The position numbers were made by a program, and so were the translations under genes. Below, piece by piece: positions 16,020 through 51,833 of a stretch of 64,000 nt of DNA (within the stretch, counting starts at the first letter, position 1; each line of letters begins with the position of its first letter). Source of the stretch: Planctomycetota bacterium (GTDB lineage Bacteria > Planctomycetota > Phycisphaerae > SM23-33); the NCBI GenBank assembly GCA_016235825.1, contig JACRIL010000152.1:53414-117413 (forward strand), read 5' to 3'. The notes under the pieces are model-generated. The model was given only the letters and a program-made list of their open reading frames with translations. It was not told the origin of the DNA and did not search any database.

Positions 16020-16092
16020 TGGAGACACGGGGGATCGAACCCCGAACCTCTAGCTTGCAAAGCTAGCGCTCTCCCAATTGAGCTATGTCCCC
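16020..16092 (-). tRNA. tRNA-Ala (anticodon UGC)
   Basis: Reverse complement GGGGACATAGCTCAATTGGGAGAGCGCTAGCTTTGCAAGCTAGAGGTTCGGGGTTCGATCCCCCGTGTCTCCA: cloverleaf with G3:U70 Ala identity pair, anticodon loop TT-TGC-AA, TTCGATC T-loop. No encoded CCA. Confidence 0.85.
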
Positions 16093-16132
16093 TCTCGTGC
16101 ACGCAACCTTAAAAGTTGTTCCGCCGGCAAAA

Positions 16133-16206
16133 TGGGCCTGGACCGATTCGAACGGTCGACCTTGCCCTTATCAGGGGCACGCTCTAACCAACTGAGCTAC
16201 AAGCCC
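16133..16206 (-). tRNA. tRNA-Ile (anticodon GAU)
   Basis: Reverse complement GGGCTTGTAGCTCAGTTGGTTAGAGCGTGCCCCTGATAAGGGCAAGGTCGACCGTTCGAATCGGTCCAGGCCCA: near-identical to canonical bacterial tRNA-Ile(GAT); anticodon loop CT-GAT-AA. Confidence 0.85.
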
Positions 16207-39421: not shown

Positions 39422-39587
39422 CGCTCGCCTTTCTTGAAATTCGCCTGCATGGACAGTCCGGCCCTGAAGCAAACTCTAAAAACCATCTTCGAGTTTGTAA
39501 AGTCAACATTGACGAAGCTGTATTCCGTTGTTGTACGTATAAGGCGAACTTGAATCGATAACGCTTTAGGATTTTCCTGAGAATCGT

Positions 39588-40778
39588 TCATTCTTCCTCA
39601 GTATTAACATATTTGTATCGCCCCTTGTTTTTTTCCGCGAGTTTTTTGAGGAAACCAGAGGTATTGTGTTTGTCTTCGCCGTATTGAAACACGCAGATCA
39701 TTGCCCGATCGGTTTCCGACGGATTGCGTTCCGCGAGCAATTTCGCCAGTGCCGCTTTTGACTCGGGAAACTGCCCGTCCGTCAGGAAATAGATCAGTTT
39801 GCCTTTATTTTTAACGTCCTTAAGCACTTCAAAAGCCCGCTCCATCGCCGGCACTGGGTCCGTCATGCCTTCAGGAACGAGGTTCTTGAGGAACTCGGCG
39901 GACATCACTTTATTCTGCCTGTTGGCGACAATGAGTTGTTTGGGCGGATTTTCTATCGGCGTTCCCTTTGTAAAATATATCAGGTGGAAATCCTGTTCCT
40001 CCTTGAGCTGGCCAAGAGAAATCAGCAATTCCTTGCGGATACGGTCGAACGTGTAGATCATGGAACCGGAACAATCGACGACATATACGACACAATACGC
40101 ACGACCACCATACTGGTTTGTTATATGCTCTATTATAGCCTTGGCTCGCTCTGCTATTTCCGGATCGGAATCCTCATTTCCGACAACACTTTCAAGGGTC
40201 GGCACGGCCGATCTGCCGATCTTCTTGAGACTCTCCGTGGCTTCCTCTCGAACCTTTATGTCATTATTGCCGAGTTTGGCTACCAGTTTTTTGATTTCTT
40301 CAAGATTGGTTTTTGGCTGTGTGGTTGACCGTGCCGCGGCAGCGAAAAATGCCTCATCCTCGTCATCGGTGTTCGGTACAGGTTCCGGTTTCTTATTTTT
40401 AATGATGGCCTCAAAGACAGGCAGGGCCGCTTTGCCAAGCTCCATGAACCGTCGGGCGGCCTTGAAACGGACTTCCGGGTCATCGTCGTCAAGTTGGGCG
40501 ACCAGTTTCCAGATTTCGCTTTGATTGACAGCCGGGGCGGATGCCGGCACTGTTTCCGGCAATGAAGACGGCGAGGTTGATGCAACGGTTACCGGAACGA
40601 TTGCCGGCGCGGCAGACGGGGCGGATGCCGTCGGGTTCGCGGCGTCGCCGCAACCGGTACCAGATGCAATCAACACAATCACAAATGCCGACGTGAAAAG
40701 TTTTGAAAGAAACCGGTATGCCCGCTTCACGGAAGCAGTCTTTTTATTGCAACTGTTCGTCATTCCCGGAGATGACAT
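39588..40778 (-). CDS. vWA-domain lipoprotein with HEAT-like repeats
   Basis: Lipoprotein signal (LIASGTGC), HEAT-like repeats (DDDPEVRFKAARRFMELGKAALP; NDIKVREEATESLKKIGRSAVP), vWA MIDAS VVYVVDCSGSM. Confidence 0.5.
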   Translation of the reverse strand: MSSPGMTNSCNKKTASVKRAYRFLSKLFTSAFVIVLIASGTGCGDAANPTASAPSAAPAIVPVTVASTSPSSLPETVPASAPAVNQSEIWKLVAQLDDDDPEVRFKAARRFMELGKAALPVFEAIIKNKKPEPVPNTDDEDEAFFAAAARSTTQPKTNLEEIKKLVAKLGNNDIKVREEATESLKKIGRSAVPTLESVVGNEDSDPEIAERAKAIIEHITNQYGGRAYCVVYVVDCSGSMIYTFDRIRKELLISLGQLKEEQDFHLIYFTKGTPIENPPKQLIVANRQNKVMSAEFLKNLVPEGMTDPVPAMERAFEVLKDVKNKGKLIYFLTDGQFPESKAALAKLLAERNPSETDRAMICVFQYGEDKHNTSGFLKKLAEKNKGRYKYVNTEEE

Positions 40779-40861: not shown

Positions 40862-41827
40862 TCAGGACGCCTGGGCCATGGGGTGTGCCTTGTCGTAGAC
40901 TTCCTTGAGTCGGCTGGTCGTCAGGTGGGTGTATATCTGGGTGGTGGAGAGATTTTCGTGGCCGAGGAGTTCCTGTACGCTCCGCAGGTCGGCCCCGGCG
41001 TTGAGCATATGTGTGGCGAAGCTGTGCCGCAGCGTATGCGGGCTGATGTGCATCGGGATTCCGGCGGTCAGCAGGTACTTGTCGAGCTTGCGGCGGATGG
41101 ACCTGTCGGTCAGGCGGCGGCAGGACTTGTTGACGAACAGCGGCCCGGCCTCCTGGCGCCCGAAGGCCTCGTCGCGCTTTATGAGATATTTTTTGATCGC
41201 CTCGACGGCCTTGCCGCCCAGCGGCGCGATCCGCTGCTTCTTGCCCTTGCCATTGACCTTGACGGCCCCGGAGAACTCGTCGAGGTCCTCGATGTTCATG
41301 GCCACAAGTTCGCTTATCCGCAGGCCGGCCGAGTAGATCGTCTCCAGGATCGCCTTGTCGCGGCTGCCCAGCAGGGTGGCGGCGTCGGGGGCGGAAAGCA
41401 GCGTGCCGACCTGCTGGACATCGAGGCACTTGGGCAGCTTCTTGTCCTGCCGGGGCGTGCGGATCACGCTGACGGGCGAAAATTCCAGCACCTGGCCGCG
41501 GATCAGGAACTTGTAGAAGCTCCGCAGGCAGGCGAGCTTTCTGGCGACGGTGGCCTTGGAATACTGGTTGTTCCGCATCATGGCCAGGTACGCCCGCACG
41601 TCGGTTGGCGATACGGCGGTCAGCTTGCCGGAGATGCCCTCGTGGGCGGGCAGTTCGTCGGCCGGCGTGAGATTTCCGGCGGTCAGCCCCTCGGCGGACA
41701 TATCCGAGCAGAGGAACTGGCAGAACTGCTCCAGGTCGGCCGTGTACGATCGGATCGTGTGGTTGGAAAAACTCCGCTGGTTCTGAAGGAAGTCCAGGAA
41801 CTTTTCTACAAGCTCCGGCAGTTGCAT
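40862..41827 (-). CDS. Tyrosine recombinase XerC/XerD-type
   Basis: 321 aa; N-terminal core-binding domain (IRSYTADLEQF), catalytic HTLRHSFATHML ... LGHENLSTTQIYTHL (R-H-R-Y). Confidence 0.8.
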   Translation of the reverse strand: MQLPELVEKFLDFLQNQRSFSNHTIRSYTADLEQFCQFLCSDMSAEGLTAGNLTPADELPAHEGISGKLTAVSPTDVRAYLAMMRNNQYSKATVARKLACLRSFYKFLIRGQVLEFSPVSVIRTPRQDKKLPKCLDVQQVGTLLSAPDAATLLGSRDKAILETIYSAGLRISELVAMNIEDLDEFSGAVKVNGKGKKQRIAPLGGKAVEAIKKYLIKRDEAFGRQEAGPLFVNKSCRRLTDRSIRRKLDKYLLTAGIPMHISPHTLRHSFATHMLNAGADLRSVQELLGHENLSTTQIYTHLTTSRLKEVYDKAHPMAQAS

Positions 41828-42213: not shown

Positions 42214-43002
42214 TTGAGCCGATTGGCGATTATTCGCATGGACGAAAGCACCGACAAACCCGACAGGATGGCGCTGGGCGATCATCTGGACGATCTCCGC
42301 AGGAGGCTGATCTATGCGCTGATCGGGCTGGCGGTCGGCATGACCGGCGGCCTGGTCGAGGCGGGCGACATCATCCGGTTCCTCCAGAAACCCTACATGG
42401 AGATCGCCAGGCAGTCCGGCATGTCGAACACGCTGGTGGCAATGTCGCTCACCGACGGCATCAGCACGTATTGCGAGGTGGGTTTTTATGCCGGCCTGAT
42501 GGTGTCAAGCCCGTGGGTCTTCTGGCAGCTCTGGATGTTCGTGTCGGTCGGGCTGCTGCCCCGCGAGCGGCGATACGTCCTGCTGGCGGCGCCGGCGTCG
42601 GCGGGTTTGTTCGTCGCGGGGGCGGCGTTTTTCTTCTTCGTGGTCTCCGGGCCGATGCTCGGCTTCCTGGTGATGTTCAACAACTTCATGGGGCTGGCCA
42701 TGTTTCTCACGCTGGATCATTACATCAGCTTCATCGCCGGCATGGTGATAACATTCGGCCTGGCCTTCCAGATGCCGCTGGCGGTGATGCTGCTGGCCAA
42801 GATGGGAATTGTAGGCACGGCCGGTCTGGCCAGATATCGCAAGCACGTCATACTGGCGCTTGTCATCGCAGCCGCTGTGATCGTCCCGACGCCCAGCCCG
42901 ATCGATCAGCTCATGCTGGCCATTCCGCTCTGTGCGCTCTACGAACTGGGCATTCTGCTGGCCAAAATTGTTACCCGCCCGAAAAAGCCGGAGGCTGCAT
43001 AG
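42214..43002 (+). CDS. tatC: Sec-independent twin-arginine translocase subunit TatC
   Basis: 262 aa, six TM helices, N-terminal HLDDLRRRLIYALIGLAVGM and conserved TatC loop motifs (FFFFVVSGPMLGFLVMF). Confidence 0.8.
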   Translation: MSRLAIIRMDESTDKPDRMALGDHLDDLRRRLIYALIGLAVGMTGGLVEAGDIIRFLQKPYMEIARQSGMSNTLVAMSLTDGISTYCEVGFYAGLMVSSPWVFWQLWMFVSVGLLPRERRYVLLAAPASAGLFVAGAAFFFFVVSGPMLGFLVMFNNFMGLAMFLTLDHYISFIAGMVITFGLAFQMPLAVMLLAKMGIVGTAGLARYRKHVILALVIAAAVIVPTPSPIDQLMLAIPLCALYELGILLAKIVTRPKKPEAA

Positions 43003-43005
43003 ACG

Positions 43006-44658
43006 TCACTTCTTCGCGGGCTGCCTGACGTTGGCGTCGTCCCTGATCAGTTTTTCGGCCTGCCTGCCGGCGACCGTGTCGGGATAGTCCGTCAGAAGCT
43101 TATTGATCGCCTCGGATGCCTTCAGGTGGTCCTGGACCGAGATGTGCATCTTGGCCAGGTTCAGCAGCCGCTCGGCCTCGCCCTCGGGGTCTTTGGGGAT
43201 CGGGCCTTTGGGCGTGCCCATGACGTAATTGTCCACTTCAGGCGTCAGCGCTCCGTCCACGCTGGGCGGGTCCCAGCGGAAGTTGCGTGTCAGCAGCCTG
43301 TCGACCAGCCCGGCCTGCTTGAGGAGCTTGGCCATGCTCTTTTTCTTGCGATCCAGTTCGGCCTTCAATTCGTTGCTGTCCGACTGGAGCGACACGCCGG
43401 TCGACTTGAGCTGGTTGATCGAACTGGTCAGATCGCCTATCTGGCGGAAATAATCGCCGGCATAAGGCATGTAGCCGAAATTGCCGGGATAATAATATGG
43501 ATAGGGCCATGGCCAGGGATCGGGATCGCGATGGCGGCGATGATGTCCGTGATCGTGGCCATGCCCTCCTCCGCCATGTCCGACCGGACCGCCGCCGGGT
43601 CCGGCCATAGGCATGGCGCCGCCTAGCCCGCCCCCGAAGCCGCCGCCGAAAAACGGGCCGGGATAATAAGAATTGTTGAACGAGCCGGCCATCGAGAAAT
43701 CGCCCCACGTCCCGGCAAAGCCGATGCTCAGTCCGTCGCCGAACCAGGGCCAGAAGCCGCCTCCGCCCGGAAAATAGGGATAGAACCCGCCGTAATTGCC
43801 GTAGTTGACGGTCGGCCAGCTAATTGGCGCCAGCCCGCCGCTGACGATGAAAGGCGGCGCGTTGAGCATCTGCCGATACATGTACAACGCCTCGGTCTGC
43901 TTGTTCTGTATCTGGCTCGATATGTCCATCAGCTTGGCCTGAACATCCAGGTAATTCCGCTGGACGGCCAGCGTCGCGTCCTCCAGCGTCGCCATCTTGT
44001 CGCCGGTTTCCTTGTCGAGCTTGTCTCTGGCGATGTATGCGTCGCGGACCTTTTTGTAGCTGCGGGCGAAGGCCTCGTTCTGGTCCCACTTGTTGCGGAG
44101 GTTGTCGAGTATCCGCTTGAGCGCGTCGGGCAGCTCGGGAGCGTCGAGCGTGTTTTCGTACCAGACCATGAGCTGGCCGGCGTTGTTCATTATGCCCGCG
44201 TCGTTCGGCAGCAGTGCGGCGGCCCGTATGCAGGCCGGCAGGGCCGCGCCATAATCGCCCCGCTTGCCGTTCATGCACCCGATGACGCCCCAGGCCGTCC
44301 CGTTGCGCGGATCAAGATTTACCAGCACCTTGGCCGGCATCTCGGCGTACTGCGGCAGGCCCAGGCTGAGCATCCGCTTCATGTATGTCTCGTGAATCGC
44401 CAAGCTGGTGTTGTCGATCGAGCAGCCCTTGACGTAGCAGGTCAAGGCGGTCGCCGGGTCCTTGGTCTCTTTGATGGCCGCGATAAACGGCGCCAGCCTC
44501 TGCTCGACGGTGGGCGCGGCCTTGGGCTGCGGCTTGCCGTCGCTGAATGCCTGGCAGGCGCACGCCGCAAAAACGCCGGCCAGAACCAGACGCGCGATTG
44601 AACTGGTGGAGATTCTCCCGCTCATGGTTTGCTCCCGAAAAAGGTTTGTCGGAGTCAT
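43006..44658 (-). CDS. Secreted protein with Gly/aromatic/His-rich low-complexity core and coiled-coil flanks
   Basis: Signal peptide IARLVLAGVFAACACQA; central ~150 aa GGFYPYFPGGGGFWPWFGDG...GGGPVGHGGGGHGHDHGHHRRHRDPDPWPWPYPYYYPGNFGY. Confidence 0.45.
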   Translation of the reverse strand: MTPTNLFREQTMSGRISTSSIARLVLAGVFAACACQAFSDGKPQPKAAPTVEQRLAPFIAAIKETKDPATALTCYVKGCSIDNTSLAIHETYMKRMLSLGLPQYAEMPAKVLVNLDPRNGTAWGVIGCMNGKRGDYGAALPACIRAAALLPNDAGIMNNAGQLMVWYENTLDAPELPDALKRILDNLRNKWDQNEAFARSYKKVRDAYIARDKLDKETGDKMATLEDATLAVQRNYLDVQAKLMDISSQIQNKQTEALYMYRQMLNAPPFIVSGGLAPISWPTVNYGNYGGFYPYFPGGGGFWPWFGDGLSIGFAGTWGDFSMAGSFNNSYYPGPFFGGGFGGGLGGAMPMAGPGGGPVGHGGGGHGHDHGHHRRHRDPDPWPWPYPYYYPGNFGYMPYAGDYFRQIGDLTSSINQLKSTGVSLQSDSNELKAELDRKKKSMAKLLKQAGLVDRLLTRNFRWDPPSVDGALTPEVDNYVMGTPKGPIPKDPEGEAERLLNLAKMHISVQDHLKASEAINKLLTDYPDTVAGRQAEKLIRDDANVRQPAKK

Positions 44659-44812
44659 TAGCCGAACCGTTGTCGCCAGGCTGAATTATACTCTGTATTC
44701 AGCCGCCCGGGCAAGGCCGAAGGCCCCGGCGCATACCGCATGCGCCGTAGGCCTCTGATTATAAAGACCCGCCAGACTTGACCAGGTTAGGCGAAAAAAG
44801 TAGGATTTCGGC

Positions 44813-45388
44813 ATGATTCTGATGATCGACAACTACGACAGCTTTACCTACAACCTTGTCCAGCGGATCGGCGAGCTTGGCACGCCGCACGCGATAAAGG
44901 TCGTCCGCAACGACGTTATGCCGCCCGACCAGGCGCAGGCTGAGATTAAACCGACCCACCTGATCATCTCGCCGGGCCCCTGCACGCCCAACGAGGCCGG
45001 CCTGAGCTGCGACTACATCCGCCATTTTCACGGGAAGATCCCGATCCTCGGCGTCTGCCTGGGCCATCAGGCCATAGGGCAGGTCTTCGGCGGAAAGGTC
45101 ATCCGGGCAGGCAGATTGATGCACGGCAAGACCAGCCAGATCCGCCACGACGCGAAAGGCGTCTTCGCCGGCCTGCCCAACCCCTTCACCGCCACGCGAT
45201 ATCACAGTCTGGTGGTCGACCCGGCCGGTCTGGACGGCGATTTCATCCAGACCGCCTGGACCGTCGATCAGAACGAACTGATGGGCATCCGCAGCAGGAC
45301 CAAACCCACCGAAGGCGTACAGTTCCACCCCGAAAGCTTCCTCACCGAATCCGGCTACGAACTGCTCCGGAATTTTCTGAATATGTGA
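44813..45388 (+). CDS. Glutamine amidotransferase, anthranilate/aminodeoxychorismate synthase component II (TrpG/PabA)
   Basis: 191 aa; MILMIDNYDSFTYNLVQ start, catalytic GVCLGHQAIG (Cys), and HPES (His/Glu) triad region. Confidence 0.8.
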   Translation: MILMIDNYDSFTYNLVQRIGELGTPHAIKVVRNDVMPPDQAQAEIKPTHLIISPGPCTPNEAGLSCDYIRHFHGKIPILGVCLGHQAIGQVFGGKVIRAGRLMHGKTSQIRHDAKGVFAGLPNPFTATRYHSLVVDPAGLDGDFIQTAWTVDQNELMGIRSRTKPTEGVQFHPESFLTESGYELLRNFLNM

Positions 45389-45584: not shown

Positions 45585-45944
45585 ATGCCAAAGAAACAGA
45601 TTCACATCCGCGACGTGCCGGAGTCGCTCTACGAGTGGATTGAGAGCGAGCGCCACGCCAAGCGGGTGTCGCAAAAGGAATTCCTGTTGAAGGTAATCGG
45701 GAATGCCGCCGCACATTCCACGGCAGACACGGGAGCGTCGGGGCCGTCGGCTTTCAGCCGAATGACCATGGTTTACTGGAAGAGCAAGAAGTTCTGGCTG
45801 GGCAAGTTGCTCGAACATCCGGAAATCATGACGCAAGGCCGAACGCTGGAGGAATTGGAGCGGAACATCCGCGAAGCGTATATGCTGATGGCGTTTGACG
45901 AGGTGCCCGAAAAGTACCAAATCCGCGAAGTGGTCATGACATGA
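45585..45944 (+). CDS. HicB-like antitoxin with N-terminal ribbon-helix-helix segment
   Basis: N-terminal KQIHIRDVPESLYEWIESERHAKRVSQKEFLLKVI (RHH-like beta-strand + helices); C-terminal MVYWKSKKFWLGKLLEHPEIMTQGRTLEELERNIREAYMLMAF resembles HicB UPF0150 fold; stop overlaps hicA start (ATGA). Confidence 0.5.
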   Translation: MPKKQIHIRDVPESLYEWIESERHAKRVSQKEFLLKVIGNAAAHSTADTGASGPSAFSRMTMVYWKSKKFWLGKLLEHPEIMTQGRTLEELERNIREAYMLMAFDEVPEKYQIREVVMT

Positions 45945-46123
45945 AACGGCGAGAGTTGCTTCGCAGATTGCGGCAGGAGGGATGCGTCTTTCTCCGCGCC
46001 GGCGGCAAACACGACATCTACGTGAATCCAAAGACGGGGAAGAAGCAGCCGGTTCTCCGGCATAGCGAGATCGACGAACATTTGGCCAGGCACATCTTGC
46101 GATACCTGGGACTGGAGCAATAG
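45941..46123 (+). CDS. hicA: HicA mRNA-interferase toxin
   Basis: 60 aa; LLRRLRQEGCVFLRAGGKHDIYVNPKTGKKQPVLRHSEI...ILRYLGL matches HicA consensus including the GxH catalytic motif (GGKH). Confidence 0.65.
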   Translation: MKRRELLRRLRQEGCVFLRAGGKHDIYVNPKTGKKQPVLRHSEIDEHLARHILRYLGLEQ

Positions 46124-46400: not shown

Positions 46401-46478
46401 TTTATTTCGCCCCTTCAGGGCTTGACTGTTATGGCGGCCGATTTCCTGGGGCGTTGCCCCAGGCTTTCATATTGCGCC
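46401..46478. repeat. Left arm of ~78-nt imperfect inverted repeat (MITE-like / structured RNA element)
   Basis: tttatttcgccccttcagggctt...cctggggcgttgccccagg...ttcatattgcgc; ~75-80% identical to reverse complement of 46681-46758; contains internal perfect hairpin cctggggc-gtt-gccccagg (46446-46464). Confidence 0.5.
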
Positions 46479-46680
46479 CCGTTGGGGCTTCACGATTTTC
46501 TCGTCATTTATAAAGTTGGCGATTCAAAGTATGATGAGCCGGTCGATGGGTTATTTTTTAAAGCCCCGCATGTAAATGCGGAGATGTTGTTGTCTTTGTA
46601 GTTAAAAAAAGAAAATTTTCCCCTGCTCGCGCAGGAGGCTTCAGGAATGGTTCGCCGATGGATGTTACGCCCTGAGAAGG

Positions 46681-46828: not shown

Positions 46829-48862
46829 ATGGCGTGGTTGGGCGAATATTACAGGCAGCGCGGCGGCGGGGCGGCGTCATCCATCAGCAGGTGGCGGACG
46901 ACGGCGGATATCGGCGTTATCCTGCTGCTGATCGTCGCGATGGCCGCCATCGCGGACCACGCGCCCAGCACGACCTACGCATTCGCCCAGCTCAACAACA
47001 TCGGCAGCGCGATGGCAATGGAGCAGAACGGCAACTGGCTGTCGCCGGTGAACCAGGTGGGCAATGTGCCCCGCAAGGGGCCGCTGACGTTCTGGGCGCT
47101 GGGCGGGCTGCTGAAGCTGACGGACGCCCGCGACGACCTGATTTTTCGCCTGCCGAATATTCTGTGCTCATTGGCGACGGCGGTGCTGATCTATCTGCTG
47201 GCCGGGCGATGGTACAACAGGCGGGCGGCGCTGCTTTCGGCGTGCCTGTGGGTCGTCATGCTGCATATGAGCAAGCAGATCAACGTCGCACTTACCGACA
47301 TGATGCTGACAATGTGGCTGACGGGGGCGATCTTCTGCCTGGACCGGCTGGTGTTCCATCGCGCCGGGGGCAGCCGGGCGTGGTGGTGGGTCGCCGGCTT
47401 CTGGGCGTGCATGACTTTGAGCGGCATCACGAAAGGCTGGGGGCTGGTCAGTCTGGCGCTGGTGTTTTTCTTCATGATACTTGCGGCGGGACTGGGTGGC
47501 GGGTTCAAACCGCTGCGGCTGGCGATGCCGTGGTTCGACAGGCCGATACTGGCCGGGCGGATAATTATCCGGCGGGCGTGGCGGGCGTTCTTATGCACGC
47601 GACCGGCCTGGGGTCTGCCGGTTTTTGTCGCGGTTATCGGCACGGTTCTGGGCGCGATGATCTGGAACGGCGGGCAGGAATTCGTCCGCGACGCGCTGGG
47701 CGTGGAGATCGGCCAGCGGATAACCGGCGAAGGCGAGACGGCCCCGGTCCGCGGTTGGACCCTGCCGCCGCTGCAACTGATCTATTTCACGCTGCCGGCG
47801 TCGTATCTGGCGCTGATCGCGTTTTGCTTTGTCAGGCCGGGCCTGTGGCTGGGCCGCAAGGGGCCGCTGTGCCTGCCGATTTTCTGGATTATCGCGGTGG
47901 TCGTGCCGTATTCGATTCCGCACGGGTTCCGGCCGGATTATCTGCTGCCGTGCTACGCGGCGGTGGCGATCATGGGCGGATGGGCGGTTGATCGGCTGGC
48001 AGAACTGGCCCGGCTGACCAATCGCGGCCGGCTGGGGGGGCGGGCCGGACGGACGGTGATCTTCGCCCGGCACGCGATGGCGGCAGTGCCGGTGCTGATT
48101 GGTGCGGCGATCTTCGTGCTGGCCAGCGCATACTTTTTCCGCGAACTGCTGCCGGCCGCATGGCAGCTCGACAAGCTTCTGCCGATGCCGTTTTTAATCG
48201 GCCCCGAGACCTGGCCGATGCTCTGGGCGTGCATGACGCTGGGCGTCTGCACGATTGCGGCCGGCGTCTGGGCGAGCCTGACCTGGCGGATAAGGACGGT
48301 CGGGGCGGCTGCGATTTACGGCATGCTGTGCGCGGCGTTCCTGGCGACGCACTTCATCAATCCCGAGGCACGCACCGGCGACGGCGAAAAGATGCGGACA
48401 CTGGCGATGGACGTCCGGCCGATCGTCGGGGCCGACCGATATTACGTCCACAAGTGCGAGAAGCTTTCGGTCGAACTGTATTTCGGGCAGTTTGGCCAAA
48501 AGCTTCTGCCCGGCGGCGTCGGCGATCCGTCGATAAAGTACGATCCTTGTGATTCCGGTCGTGATTTCACGCTAACTATCGGCGATCCGGCGATCCGCTG
48601 GCTGATGACGTGCGACCGCGGTCTGGTCGAGATGGGCGCAGCCGTCGAAAAACCTGGAGGAGACTTCACGCTCAAACTCGGCAATGCGAGAAAAACCTTT
48701 GACACTTGGCCCGATATACTGGGCCAAGTCGTCCGGTCAAGCCCATCCGTAGTCTCGCAAGGCTGGGGCAGGATATATCTGATCCGTCTCCATACCCGCC
48801 CGATCCGCCTGTGGTCCAAACCATTCGACACCGGCTTCATACCCGGCGCACCGGGCGAATAA
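46829..48862 (+). CDS. ArnT/PMT-family (GT39/GT83-like) membrane glycosyltransferase
   Basis: 677 aa; ~11 N-terminal TM helices with PLTFWALGGLLKL and LPNILCSLATAVLIYLLAGRW pattern typical of dolichyl/undecaprenyl-phosphate-sugar-dependent glycosyltransferases; large C-terminal periplasmic domain. Confidence 0.65.
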   Translation: MAWLGEYYRQRGGGAASSISRWRTTADIGVILLLIVAMAAIADHAPSTTYAFAQLNNIGSAMAMEQNGNWLSPVNQVGNVPRKGPLTFWALGGLLKLTDARDDLIFRLPNILCSLATAVLIYLLAGRWYNRRAALLSACLWVVMLHMSKQINVALTDMMLTMWLTGAIFCLDRLVFHRAGGSRAWWWVAGFWACMTLSGITKGWGLVSLALVFFFMILAAGLGGGFKPLRLAMPWFDRPILAGRIIIRRAWRAFLCTRPAWGLPVFVAVIGTVLGAMIWNGGQEFVRDALGVEIGQRITGEGETAPVRGWTLPPLQLIYFTLPASYLALIAFCFVRPGLWLGRKGPLCLPIFWIIAVVVPYSIPHGFRPDYLLPCYAAVAIMGGWAVDRLAELARLTNRGRLGGRAGRTVIFARHAMAAVPVLIGAAIFVLASAYFFRELLPAAWQLDKLLPMPFLIGPETWPMLWACMTLGVCTIAAGVWASLTWRIRTVGAAAIYGMLCAAFLATHFINPEARTGDGEKMRTLAMDVRPIVGADRYYVHKCEKLSVELYFGQFGQKLLPGGVGDPSIKYDPCDSGRDFTLTIGDPAIRWLMTCDRGLVEMGAAVEKPGGDFTLKLGNARKTFDTWPDILGQVVRSSPSVVSQGWGRIYLIRLHTRPIRLWSKPFDTGFIPGAPGE

Positions 48863-49185
48863 TTTTTTTGGGATGAGAACCATTTTTTGTTTACTCGCAT
48901 GAATTTAAAGAGGGGCAAGGTATTCATATCCCGCCGGACGCCATTGGCCGCATCTGTCTTGTCTGGCGTAGCCTTGGCGAAGCCGGATTGCGGCCATGTG
49001 GTTTTTTTGTAGCGTGGGCGTCTCGCTCGCGTGTGTCGTGGCCATCTTAGCCGCGATACCCGATCTTTGAAGGTTTAAAAAAGCACATGCTCGCAAACAG
49101 ATACGAGCATGACACCATTTTTTATCTCTTGGCGCGAGATCGGCAATGCCACCCGCCTATTATTCAGATATCCGCGATCGCCGGC

Positions 49186-50907
49186 TCACTTTTCAAAAGG
49201 AATCGTAACAAGATAGACCTCGCCTTTTTGGTGAACTTCCACTTCGATGGCCGCTGGACATTCCATTACATCATAAGATCGCGGAGACATATAATCAAAA
49301 GCCTGGGATATTTTATCGTCCACAACAATATAGTACTTGTTGCCTCTTACTGCTGTGTACCAGAAATGGCGATCATCAGGGCTGAAATGAATGATTGTAA
49401 GTCTATCATCAAACTCGGGGCCTGTTAAATTATCGCATACAACATAATTATGATTGTTCCGTCTTAAAACGCAGGCAAACTTTTTGCCATTCGGACTTAA
49501 GACCGGGCGAAACATCCTCTCCGATCTGAAAACCTCTTTTCCATTGTTTATAAAAAGATCTTGCCCATTATTGTATATCACATAAAATATATTATTGCTG
49601 TCGTTGCTGAATTGCAGCCAATTTATAGACCCGTTGAATGAGTCCACTTTTCCATCTATGACAGCCTGCGTTATATCATTTTTTCGACCGGCAAAGGCAT
49701 ATCTCTTTCCATCGGGACTGAAGGTAAATTCATAAATAGATTCATATTCATCCGAATCTTTCCCGTCAATTCGCAGTATTCTGTTTCTGACATGAGAATG
49801 GCAGATTGCGAACCTATGATTGTCAAGATTATAATTTAGAAAATTCACAAACTCATATTCTCCTATATCCGTATCGTCCTGTACCAAAATGGATTTCTTC
49901 CCTTTTCTGGCGACATACAGTAAAGGCTTTCCGTCAGCTCCCAATGCGGGGCCGCAATAGTCCGGGCCTTTCGGCAACCTGGATGTGCTGAAAGTGACAG
50001 ATGTCTGATAAATATCATCATAGACTTGTCCTTCCTTGCCGTTACATACAACTATCCATTTATCGCCTTTTTGGGCGGCGTAGGCGTAGTGGCTTTCGTC
50101 CCAACTGAAATTTATTGACCCGATGGCGTCATAAGGTTCCCCCTTGATGCCGTCGACAACCATGTAGCATTTTTTGCCGTCATGGGCCTGGTACGCCATT
50201 CGTTTTTCATTTCTGCTGAATGCCGGGGGATAAACTACTTTGAATTCCGGCCCAGCCTTTCCTTCGACATACATAGTACAAACGCTGTCTTTTATACCTA
50301 TGTACCAAAACATGTTCTTCTTGGGCGAGAACTCCAGATCGTCAACCTTGTCCACTTCAGGGCCGGGTTGACCATCCAGAAAGGCCATCCACTTGGAGTC
50401 CTTCTTGGCCAGGAAGGCAACCCGCCCATTTTCATCAATGGTATATATCTGGCCGACATATTTCTTCTTAAAACGATTACGGATTGAGAATGCATCTGTC
50501 GACCAAAACCTACGTTCATTGCCGCCGGTTAATCCCATTTCTAGAACTGCAGGACCTTTCGATGAAACAAGGATGTCGGAAACTTCAACGACTCCTGCCA
50601 GTTGGTCATATTCCCCTAAAAGCCGGCCATCTACATAAACGGCTTGCTTATCATTATTTGTCACAACATAAGACAAATGTTCAGAATATTTCGTTTTTCG
50701 GGAAGCCAAAGATTTAACATCATCTGGAATGGTTCTTTTTGGCCCGAGTTTTTTGCAATTTGGTCCGTTAAGGTCGATGATAAATTCCGTCAATGCCAGC
50801 GAGCTGACCGGCTGGGTGGAGGCGGGTTTAGTTGTCTGGCTGACGCAAAGACTGCCTTGAAGGCAGATCAGCAGGCCGGCCGCTATCACAATAACCGAGG
50901 TTCGCAT
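49186..50907 (-). CDS. Secreted WG/YG-repeat beta-propeller-like protein (low-GC gene)
   Basis: Start at internal ATG (MRTSVIVIAAGLLICLQGSL signal peptide); repeated modules of type YAxxxxxGxKxxVVxDGKxGxxYDxI (e.g. MAYQAHDGKKCYMVVDGIKGEPYDAI; YAYAAQKGDKWIVVCNGKEGQVYDDI); GC clearly lower than flanks. Confidence 0.5.
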   Translation of the reverse strand: MRTSVIVIAAGLLICLQGSLCVSQTTKPASTQPVSSLALTEFIIDLNGPNCKKLGPKRTIPDDVKSLASRKTKYSEHLSYVVTNNDKQAVYVDGRLLGEYDQLAGVVEVSDILVSSKGPAVLEMGLTGGNERRFWSTDAFSIRNRFKKKYVGQIYTIDENGRVAFLAKKDSKWMAFLDGQPGPEVDKVDDLEFSPKKNMFWYIGIKDSVCTMYVEGKAGPEFKVVYPPAFSRNEKRMAYQAHDGKKCYMVVDGIKGEPYDAIGSINFSWDESHYAYAAQKGDKWIVVCNGKEGQVYDDIYQTSVTFSTSRLPKGPDYCGPALGADGKPLLYVARKGKKSILVQDDTDIGEYEFVNFLNYNLDNHRFAICHSHVRNRILRIDGKDSDEYESIYEFTFSPDGKRYAFAGRKNDITQAVIDGKVDSFNGSINWLQFSNDSNNIFYVIYNNGQDLFINNGKEVFRSERMFRPVLSPNGKKFACVLRRNNHNYVVCDNLTGPEFDDRLTIIHFSPDDRHFWYTAVRGNKYYIVVDDKISQAFDYMSPRSYDVMECPAAIEVEVHQKGEVYLVTIPFEK

Positions 50908-50924
50908 TTTATCTCCCTTGATTA

Positions 50925-51833
50925 TCACCACCTGCTGTGGGCCTGCGTGCGGCTCTGGAGGTAGTCGGCGAAGAGTTCGCCCATGCTGCGTGAGGTGTCG
51001 CACAGGACGCGTTCGCAGCGGTTGGCGTCGCAGATGTTTTCGAGCCGCTCCATGTACGTCTTTACGGCCTCGAGGTAGGCGTCGCGTATTTCCGACGGGC
51101 GGGTGAGGTGTTTTTCGTCGATCTCCAGGCCGATGAATTTGACCAGGCCGGGCATGTCGAACTCCAGTTCATCGTGGTGCATCACGTGCATCAGGACGAC
51201 CTCGTGCCTGTCGTATTTAAGGCGCTGGAGAACCTTGTCCAGGTCGTCCAAGTCCGCCAGCAGGTCGCTTAAGATAACGACGATGCCCCTTCGCCCGAAC
51301 CGCCCGGCCAGTTCATGGATCGGCGGGCCTATCTTGGTTGTCTTCTCCGGTTTGGCCTTGTCGAGAATCTCCACCATCCGCATTATCTGGGCCATCGAGT
51401 TGGAGCCGGCCAGGACGGAGACAACTTCTTCGTCGAACAGTGCCAGCGAGACCTTGTCGGACTGCTCGACGACCAGGTACGCCAGAATGCTTGCCGCCCT
51501 GGCCGCGAAGAGCAGCTTCTGGCTGTCGCCCTGGCCGTAGCGCATCGAGGCCGACACGTCCAGCAGCAGGTGCACGGCCATGTCGGTCTCCATCTCGTAC
51601 TGTTTTATCACGTGCTTGTCGGTGCGGTAGTAGACCTTCCAGTCCAGGTGCTTGATGTCGTCGCCGGGAACGTACTCGCGGTGGCCGGAAAATTCGACTG
51701 CAAATCCGTGGAACGGCGACTTGTGCGTGCCGGCCATCGAACCCTCGACCAGCCCGCGAGGCATGAACTGCCAGTGCCTCAGGCGGCTGAGGACTTCCGG
51801 CTGAACGTATTTGCCCAGTACCCGCTTGGCCAT
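50925..51833 (-). CDS. DUF58 family protein (vWA-like, MoxR-associated)
   Basis: 302 aa; HKSPFHGFAVEFSGHREYVPGDDIKHLDWKVYYRTDKHVIKQYEME and LLLDVSASMRYG are the hallmark DUF58 motifs; directly downstream of MoxR. Confidence 0.7.
   Translation of the reverse strand: MAKRVLGKYVQPEVLSRLRHWQFMPRGLVEGSMAGTHKSPFHGFAVEFSGHREYVPGDDIKHLDWKVYYRTDKHVIKQYEMETDMAVHLLLDVSASMRYGQGDSQKLLFAARAASILAYLVVEQSDKVSLALFDEEVVSVLAGSNSMAQIMRMVEILDKAKPEKTTKIGPPIHELAGRFGRRGIVVILSDLLADLDDLDKVLQRLKYDRHEVVLMHVMHHDELEFDMPGLVKFIGLEIDEKHLTRPSEIRDAYLEAVKTYMERLENICDANRCERVLCDTSRSMGELFADYLQSRTQAHSRW

Follow-up and report, generated by a model that had tools for sequence, protein, structure and literature searches.

A gene on the minus strand (43006..44625) of a 64,000-nucleotide stretch of Planctomycetota DNA (contig JACRIL010000152.1; the whole stretch is hereafter called the window) encodes a 539-aa protein in which a long segment of extreme Gly/Pro/aromatic/His composition lies between regions predicted to be folded. 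We find that this low-complexity core corresponds to the tip, here hypertrophied, of a stalk protein conserved within a large and previously undescribed family of Planctomycetota. Judged from sequence comparison across that family, the core is a lineage-specific expansion of a hypervariable aromatic stalk tip, and not a conserved domain.

Composition of the low-complexity core

The core occupies 43447..43857 (minus strand), i.e., the 137 residues 257–393, or 268–404 in the numbering of a 550-aa open reading frame (ORF) that begins further upstream (residue numbers refer to the 539-aa protein unless stated). It consists of 27.7% Gly, 13.9% Pro, 9.5% Phe, 9.5% Tyr, 5.1% His, and 4.4% Trp, with zero Lys or Glu. 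Together these six residue types make up a fraction of 0.70, against a background mean of 0.26 (standard deviation (s.d.) 0.07) calculated over 2,550 segments of 137 aa, which were drawn from every ORF of 200 aa or longer in the six frames of the window. Every top-ranking segment belonged to the target ORF and no other 137-aa stretch in the window came close, confirming the extreme Gly/aromatic/Pro/His core reported in a preliminary description of this DNA. The 32 aromatic residues are mostly 1–8 residues apart with Gly/Pro spacers, and the fraction of charged residues (D and R counted) is 0.07. The calculated net charge of the core shifts from +2.4 at pH 6 to −1.3 at pH 7 because of its His residues. 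Within the core, a His cluster (HGGGGHGHDHGHHRRHR; 43528..43578, minus strand, residues 350–366) has HxH spacing (HGHDHGHH) and counts 8 His and 1 Asp among its 17 residues, the 8 His falling within 16 residues and the best 12-aa window containing 6, and the HxH pattern by itself makes metal binding at this site plausible.

A large unnamed Planctomycetota family

Next, we searched for relatives. An exhaustive phmmer search over 1.84 billion cluster representatives (one per cluster at 50% identity) returned 729 representatives at E ≤ 1e-3, 504 at E ≤ 1e-10, and 91 at E ≤ 1e-30. This was the informative search, a word-index profile search having been swamped by low-complexity words (5 matches). 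One family match, the 2,461-aa globin-like repeat protein P0053, was spurious and was discarded. Family members are nearly all 410–450 aa long and match the target in two stretches on either side of the core, the best non-self match (P0002) showing 39% identity over the matched stretches only. Further counts rest on 150 of the 729 representatives, 139 of them of full length, with 87 included in the alignment and the hidden Markov model (HMM). The match of this HMM to the window ORF (E 1e-125) is split in two, covering profile positions 6–252 and 265–418, with the core taking the place of the ~12 profile positions in between (252 to 265). When the 137-aa core alone was searched against 5.8 billion proteins at E ≤ 1e-3, zero matches were returned, not even the core itself, as such a search is underpowered for low-complexity queries.

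By two conserved blocks, the window protein reads as a clear family member that is atypical in its tip alone. It has the N-terminal head block of the family (AYxRG..ID...LH.AYM.RML.FGLP ... NG.AWGV.GY ... NAGQL.AWY), in which G89, N148, L152, and W155 are among the conserved columns of the 87-sequence alignment. It also has the signature motif FRWDPPSVDGALTPEVD (43231..43281, minus strand; residues 449–465), a non-helical segment modeled at a predicted local distance difference test score (pLDDT) of 95–98. Residues 449–458 read FRWDPPSVDG, an instance of the near-invariant family form FRWDPPxVDG. Across the 87 sequences, P454 is invariant, and W451, P453, V456, and G458 are each conserved in at least 90%.

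Where organisms are named, they are Planctomycetota, “Planctomycetaceae”, or Phycisphaerae metagenome-assembled genomes (MAGs), and the family has so far been found in Planctomycetota only. No Pfam or NCBIfam model reached its cut-off for the target protein, which displayed only sub-threshold matches to tetratricopeptide repeat (TPR) models at residues ~111–153 and ~486–521, and we found no description of the family in the literature. Some members depart from the common plan (P0112, P0104, and P0075 among them): variants include a ~290-residue N-terminal extension before the head, a 670-aa chain with two complete head-stalk units, and extra C-terminal TPR-like units.

Predicted architecture

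To place the core in a structural context, we examined an AlphaFold2 (AF2) model of the target built with the 87-sequence alignment, which had a predicted template modeling score (pTM) of 0.71 and a pLDDT of ~98 in its folded parts. Following a signal-peptide helix at residues 7–21, the model has an N-terminal TPR-like helical-repeat head (44083..44508, minus strand; residues 40–181, pLDDT ~98) made of eight helices, from H40–53 through H167–181. An outgoing stalk helix (43864..44076, minus strand; residues 184–254) then runs continuously for 71 residues, or ~10 nm, at pLDDT 96–98. Residues 255–385 are without structure at pLDDT <50 (residues 260–384 within the core tip), and the core is on this basis predicted to be disordered. 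They are followed by a 62-residue return stalk helix (43285..43470, minus strand; residues 386–447, pLDDT 94–98) and, beyond the signature motif, by a C-terminal three-helix TPR-like unit (43024..43188, minus strand; residues 480–534, with helices H480–496, H500–513, and H518–534). AF2 pairs the two long helices into an antiparallel stalk of ~10 nm. In the model, the N-terminal repeats and the C-terminal three-helix unit together form one TPR-like head. The FRWDPPxVDG motif probably packs back on this head. The preliminary description had called the flanks of the core “coiled-coil-like”: long helices do flank it, but each flank is predicted to combine a TPR-like domain with one arm of a long helical hairpin.

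A typical member, P0021, was modeled at higher overall confidence (pLDDT 92, pTM 0.80) and showed the same plan except for the tip. There, a short β-hairpin with strands at 254–257 and 263–266 (sequence YYYYRDPDGRYIYV) joins the long helices.

Comparisons with known structures identified the head as TPR-like. In a Foldseek search of the target model against the PDB, consensus-TPR, MamA, and OGT-TPR structures matched the head (target-normalized TM 0.72–0.76, root-mean-square deviation ~3 Å, best E 7.7e-3). For both models, Foldseek against the PDB returned generic TPR matches only and none to the overall head, stalk, and tip shape. Compared with PDB sequences, the family profile matched designed TPR (CTPR) chains at E 6e-11, the FimV C-terminal TPR at E 2.4e-7, and CpoB (6g5s) at E 2e-4, along with myosin and SMC coiled coils over profile positions ~170–335. 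In the target itself, TPR_14 scored 19.9 bits against a cut-off of 23.5, TPR_2 and TPR_1 were also below cut-off, and the C-terminal unit gave weak TPR_14 and YbgF matches. Across the family, TPR_14 matched 50 of the 87 members at E ≤ 0.01 (best 1.3e-9). At the fold level, the head as modeled belongs to the TPR superhelical fold (Pfam clan CL0020). No solved structure or curated model covers the whole architecture.

Tip variation and origin of the core

Given the contrast between the window protein and typical members at the tip, we evaluated this segment across the family. Between the two stalk helices, the 87 members have a median of 33 aa (range 10–143). The window protein has the longest tip, at 143 aa, and the next longest measure 99, 91, 86, and 81 aa. 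Tips contain 12.2% Tyr and 15.3% Arg, compared to 3.3% and 9.4% over whole family proteins, and 54 representatives have a most aromatic 25-aa stretch with at least 6 F/Y/W, whose median start, residue 248, falls at the tip. Aromatic richness of the tip is therefore a family trait, with the window protein as its extreme. Conservation of the core itself, a check put forward in the preliminary description, did not hold: at the core position, relatives have a ~33-aa Tyr/Arg-rich tip, and the short β-hairpin modeled for such tips is not predicted in the window protein.

When members were compared over head and stalk columns, long-tip proteins were mostly nearest to short-tip ones. For instance, P0002, with a 91-aa tip, is nearest to P0005, P0008, and P0004, whose tips are 35–39 aa long. 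Since long tips are scattered among short-tip neighbors in this way, tip expansion seems to have occurred more than once. Over its first half, the window core could be aligned with the core of P0002 (PPF/YxxSxGL..I..P...Y ... FA..W ... YYPG), with a Smith–Waterman score of 82 against 51.5 ± 8.3 for composition-preserving shuffles (z 3.7; 0/300 shuffles) at a flank identity of ~37%. Above-shuffle alignment was limited to this first half and to this nearest relative, and neither the His block nor the PWPWPYPYYYP block has a counterpart in the P0002 core. At the DNA level, Tandem Repeats Finder detected only micro-duplications (12 bp ×1.9 and 9 bp ×2.1). These do not amount to a meaningful tandem repeat, so that recent slippage is not the source of the core, and a microsatellite-type origin was rejected.

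Gene start and coding status

Two in-frame starts were considered. The ORF list held the 550-aa ORF (43006..44658, minus strand), which begins at the upstream ATG and contains the peptides quoted in the preliminary description. The NCBI entry for MAG protein HZA50_11955 (“hypothetical protein”, Planctomycetes bacterium) is 100% identical and 539 aa long, lies on a 118-kb contig, and starts at the second ATG (44625). A Shine–Dalgarno-like GGGAG at 44632–44636 lies 6 nt upstream of this second ATG, which we prefer as the likely gene start, giving 539 aa plus stop.

High-GC DNA yields many spurious long ORFs, several of which overlap at the target locus, and the core searched alone found no homologs; a mis-called ORF, or an assembly or frameshift artifact in which the low-complexity stretch is not truly translated, is nevertheless extremely improbable. 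Both flanks match the family HMM in a single frame at E 1e-125, the AF2 model links them confidently, and a long aromatic core is likewise present at this position in P0002, the nearest relative. GC content by codon position was 0.59/0.46/0.81 for the whole gene and 0.62/0.58/0.68 for the core, and the gene-wide difference between third (GC3) and second (GC2) positions is typical of coding DNA. We consider the core to be translated because it lies in frame between two blocks that are conserved at the protein level across hundreds of relatives, and since the frame is kept across it, a mis-called ORF is excluded. The conserved flanks, the identical NCBI call, and the HMM match all support the ORF at 43006–44658 as real. 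The preliminary description had proposed that absence of the core from close relatives would point to a mis-called ORF; this reasoning fails here, as the flanks are strongly conserved, the frame is kept, and P0002 has a 91-aa aromatic core.

Export

A putative Sec signal peptide (MSGRISTSSIARLVLAGVFAACACQA, followed by FS; 44548..44625, minus strand) was identified at the N-terminus, with a charged n-region, a hydrophobic core (12-mer with a Kyte–Doolittle (KD) value of 2.55), and a small-residue c-region. Of the 139 full-length representatives, 131 have a similarly hydrophobic 12-mer at the N-terminus, as a rule with A-x-A after it, so that both the protein and its family lend support to the earlier proposal that the product is secreted. 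The twin-arginine (Tat) motif (S/T-R-R-x-F-L-K) was not found in MSGRISTSSIARLVLAGVFAACACQA, and a Tat-like pattern occurs in only 3 of the 139 representatives. A lipobox-like F-A-A-C at residues 19–22 weakly matches a relaxed form of the lipobox pattern ([LVI][ASTVI][GAS]C), and any lipobox-like string is present in 13/139. Instead of a signal peptide, P0073 and P0091 have an N-terminal zinc-ribbon and a transmembrane anchor, an arrangement that would also put the conserved part outside the cytoplasm.

A sister branch with aromatic and His-rich blocks

A sister branch was found among the weaker family matches and as the first gene of many tandem arrays. In its members, the same TPR head leads through an Ala/Pro linker or first helix to a Tyr/Trp/Pro cluster (e.g., DYGPGWIAPxPWxWWxPxGxWGGCxFFPFG). 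Next come a His-rich block (HHHHDHD, GGHHHHHHFDHFDHG, GHYHHGAGFGHDGDFGHHGGFDHGH) and a long tail of disordered Gly/Ser/Arg sequence, which ends in ...GGGHR or ...RR. Motifs of the WWW-P-hydrophobic type, such as PWWWWEPVGIFGGVGFVPF, also occur in this branch. Among the 150 representatives, an aromatic cluster (at least 8 aromatics in 25 residues) is present in 29, including all 11 that display a His cluster (at least 4 His in 12 residues). The window protein is one of these 11. In the 10 sister-branch cases, which may represent a single evolutionary event, the His window begins 23–49 residues past the start of the aromatic window.

The aromatic/Gly-then-His order of the sister branch recurs in the window protein, there inside a hairpin-type protein. 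Sister-branch paralogs (e.g., P0111, P0137, and P0152–P0155) thus resemble the window protein in their TPR head and in this order, but three features of the window protein are missing from them, namely its return helix, FRWDPP motif, and C-terminal TPR. Homology of the core with the sister aromatic/His block was rejected as undemonstrable, with scores within 1.9 s.d. of shuffles, and we treat the shared order as either convergence or a homology too eroded to show.

Several sister proteins (P0111, P0119, P0137, P0143, P0147, and P0152–P0154) have in common the Trp/Cys-rich motif GPGWIAPxPWxWWxPxGxWGGCGFFPFG, followed by a His/Gly/Asp/Phe block, a conserved SFFGTPARP, and a C-terminus in ...GGGGHR. 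This series may constitute an undescribed sorting or assembly signal.

Function of the expanded tip

As to function, we tentatively favor a stalk-mounted multivalent adhesive or assembly tip, whose association would be modulated by pH or divalent metal at the HxH cluster. Specifically, the protein would be an exported scaffold acting in the periplasm or on the envelope, and neither an enzyme nor a dedicated metal store. TPR domains are protein-docking modules, and for this reason the head is likely the anchoring or partner-binding end, while the tip, ~10 nm away, would be the contact end. The core would act as a multivalent “sticker” module, with aromatics in Gly/Pro spacers and nearly no fixed charge, making weak π–π, cation–π, and hydrophobic contacts with its own copies, with envelope polymers, or with membranes. 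The His cluster, through its HxH spacing and its change of charge around pH 6–7, would make this association pH- or divalent-metal-dependent. The matrix-forming and metal-binding roles raised in the preliminary description are both plausible; the analysis gave no support to the cell-wall or crateriform-structure component also proposed there.

The core combines predicted disorder (pLDDT <50), spread aromatic stickers, and low charge as in phase-separating Gly/aromatic intrinsically disordered proteins, a likeness of sequence character and not of descent. A resemblance to eukaryotic phase-separating sequences had been noted at the outset, and the composition does agree with that of extracellular Gly/aromatic/His proteins, as an analogy only (PMC6884462, PMC11794139). 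In squid beak, Gly/His/Tyr peptides coacervate upon His deprotonation, followed by Tyr clustering and stacking, in a pH-triggered process (PMC6884462). A Gly-rich protein of tick cement forms adhesive, ageing condensates via Arg and aromatic contacts (PMC11794139).

Several observations count against this reading. Only one MAG contig is known to carry the expanded core (cluster of 1). Scanning metagenomes with this one protein as query returned no close relative, and a second scan with a 3-sequence alignment added 13 family loci, none with a similar core. GC3 is lower in the core than the gene average (0.68 vs 0.81), which is compatible with weaker codon selection, and the mostly short-tip nearest neighbors of long-tip members also fit a neutral permissive loop. 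Aligned by Smith–Waterman to the sister aromatic/His blocks, the core scored no better than composition-matched shuffles (z −0.9 to 1.9). The pairing of the two helices into a hairpin comes from a monomer prediction, and pairing between chains is possible. The gene neighbors in the window give no functional clue and show no operon logic with the target. Finally, every source labels family members as “hypothetical protein”.

Some of these points are those expected if the core were a neutral low-complexity expansion in a permissive stalk-tip loop, with no function beyond that of the ancestral short tip, and we regard this as a serious rival, if a somewhat unlikely one. It would account for the 10–143 aa range and poor sequence conservation of tips, for the scatter of long tips that implies repeated independent expansions, for a core that is a singleton with lowered GC3, and for a His block and second aromatic block without counterpart in the nearest relative. 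However, the DNA bears no repeat such as recent slippage would leave, the first half of the core shows positional conservation with P0002 at ~37% flank identity, aromatic enrichment of tips is family-wide, and the aromatic-then-His order recurs in the sister branch. A useless 135-aa aromatic-rich exported segment would, moreover, likely be costly and prone to aggregation. An improbable alternative would have the aromatic tip enter the outer-membrane interface or bind peptidoglycan or polysaccharide, the protein serving in the periplasm as a tether of fixed length that links the envelope to a partner bound by the head. A rigid ~10-nm stalk with head and tip at opposite ends has the geometry of a spacer, Trp/Tyr/Arg-rich tips suit membrane interfaces and carbohydrate stacking, the sister branch has WWW-P-hydrophobic motifs, and the architecture loosely recalls the envelope TPR proteins CpoB and FimV. 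Yet the core is Gly/Pro-rich and predicted to be disordered, no transmembrane or β-barrel segment is predicted, domain scans detected no peptidoglycan-binding domain (LysM, OmpA-like, SPOR), and no envelope genes are linked.

Less probable again, we consider that the family as a whole could be an unrecognized Planctomycetota envelope-assembly system. There, rigid ~10-nm stalks with Tyr/aromatic “sticker” tips would co-assemble with each other and with the disordered Arg-rich tails of tandemly encoded paralogs, through π–π and cation–π contacts, into a condensate or gel in the periplasm or at the surface. In this scheme, the window protein would fuse both elements in one gene and add a His switch, as a bacterial counterpart of animal structural proteins cured by metal or pH, for instance those of squid beak and tick cement. 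Very unlikely is a dedicated periplasmic buffer or chaperone for Ni, Zn, or Cu, with the His cluster as its functional center and the remainder as scaffold. The HxH spacing of the cluster, with 8 His and 1 Asp among 17 residues, does recall the HxH-rich loops that bind Zn or Ni in ZnuA, ZIP, and CDF transporters and in Hpn/HypB, and His clusters recur in 11/150 representatives. Against this, one short cluster would hold a few ions per 539-aa protein, the other 139 of the 150 representatives, closest relatives included, are without it, and what is conserved family-wide is the head and the motif, not His. Nor is any metal transporter, regulator, or metalloenzyme gene linked, corA lying ~6 kb away with unrelated genes between.

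Comparison with known systems and significance

Among characterized envelope proteins, CpoB/YbgF (TIGR02795; PDB 6g5s) is like the target in being exported and in combining a long coiled coil with a TPR unit. TIGR02795, however, scored the target at only 14.2 bits (E 0.05; residues 494–536 only) against a cut-off of 90.1 bits. In CpoB, the coiled coil is N-terminal and the TPR C-terminal, whereas the TPR head of the target is split around the helical hairpin; CpoB also lacks the FRWDPPxVDG motif and an aromatic tip, and no tol-pal genes, the context of CpoB, are found near the target. An identity with CpoB/YbgF was rejected on score, architecture, and context. Similarly, the target head superposes on 3–4 repeats of TPR scaffolds (CTPR3 1na0, MamA 3vtx, and the OGT TPR domain), but these matches cover only ~115–150 of its 539 residues.

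A closer parallel in design is offered by AcrA/MacA, EnvC, and the colicin Ia receptor-binding domain, in which a long antiparallel helical hairpin presents a contact site at its far end, ~10 nm away from the body. The target shares this stalk-and-tip principle with them, with no sequence or domain homology, and EnvC (8tzk) is among the weak coiled-coil matches of the family profile. The tips of these proteins are short, ordered, and bind a defined partner (TolC, FtsX, or Cir), in contrast to the 135-aa disordered low-complexity tip of the target. Conversely, squid-beak His-rich and tick-cement Gly-rich proteins are like the core in being secreted, disordered, and Gly/aromatic-rich with His or Arg, a likeness of composition only. 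They are built of regular tandem peptide repeats, whereas the core has no repeat unit, is much richer in Pro, Phe, and Trp, and is set between folded domains of a bacterial protein.

To our knowledge, exported bacterial proteins with long aromatic/Gly/His disordered segments are rare, and we are aware of almost nothing on phase separation or “sticker” chemistry outside the bacterial cytoplasm. The periplasm and envelope of Planctomycetota are unusual and enlarged, and their protein architecture has for the most part yet to be mapped. The family defined here, with at least 729 clusters at 50% identity, has a distinctive predicted architecture, frequent tandem arrays, and a conserved adjacency to trpG/pabA, and placing the core at the stalk tip gives it both a structural context and a natural comparative series. 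If tips mediate assembly or adhesion, this series (10–143 aa), with the window protein as its extreme, would allow one to examine how tip length and aromatic/His content tune behavior. If the expansion is neutral, it would clearly illustrate how a rigid scaffold can harbor a hot-spot that tolerates insertions.

Genomic context

Family loci were compared across the window and 20 additional loci (L001–L020), a few of which duplicate one population. In 11 of these 21 loci, the family gene or array is divergent from a 191-aa TrpG/PabA-type class-I glutamine amidotransferase. In the window, this gene lies at 44813–45388 on the plus strand and its product is 72–75% identical to copies at other loci; the same divergent position is seen in L001, L002, L004, L006, L008–L011, L017, and L020. 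This conserved synteny pairs an aromatic-pathway gene with an aromatic-rich protein family. The 154-bp divergent intergenic region common to both genes in the window contains a sigma-70-like promoter match (TTGCCC-18-TATAAT, 10/12; 44685..44714, minus strand), which is a consensus match only, with 3 such sites found vs 0.7 expected.

The window holds a single copy of the family gene, while head-to-tail arrays of 2–3 paralogs were found in L002/L017 (L002 5870–10456), L006 (8019–10615), L009 (1425–5220), L010 (2553–6617), L011 (1048–4798), L012 (3–2374), and L014 (2–2544). The first gene of an array is often of the aromatic-His-basic-tail type, followed by one or two hairpin-type genes with Tyr-rich tips. 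One 614-aa protein of this first-gene type contains ~20 copies of a T-T-P-x-R-P-R-P-S repeat and ends in RRR.

On its other side, the target gene is convergent with tatC (42214–43002, plus strand), with 3 bp between the stop codons; no terminator-like site was found between these stops, where there is no room for separate terminators. Because the target signal peptide has no RR motif, we take the adjacency of tatC as coincidental, and a functional tie between the two was rejected. Further neighbors are a xerC/D-like recombinase gene (40862–41827), a HicA toxin gene (45941–46123) preceded by a 119-aa ORF in antitoxin position without Pfam match (45585–45944), and a PMT_2 glycosyltransferase gene (46829–48862), along with genes for a HEAT/VWA protein and an epimerase, dnaX, corA, and a MoxR-DUF58-VWA set.

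Elsewhere in the window, an Acido-Lenti-1 small RNA motif was matched at 46445–46489 (plus strand; 38.7 bits vs a gathering score of 37), in a stretch of ~50% GC just downstream of the HicA gene. Genes for tRNA-Ile(GAT) and tRNA-Ala(TGC) lie 40 bp apart at 16020–16206 (minus strand), a pair classically found in the rRNA spacer, yet Rfam identified no rRNA anywhere in the 64-kb window. Overall, GC content is ~62% in the background and dips to 46–50% at 39500–40300, next to the HEAT/VWA protein and XerC/D-like recombinase genes, and to 39–44% at 49000–50000, coinciding with a 605-aa ORF without Pfam match (49186–51003, minus strand). These two low-GC dips may be acquired segments.

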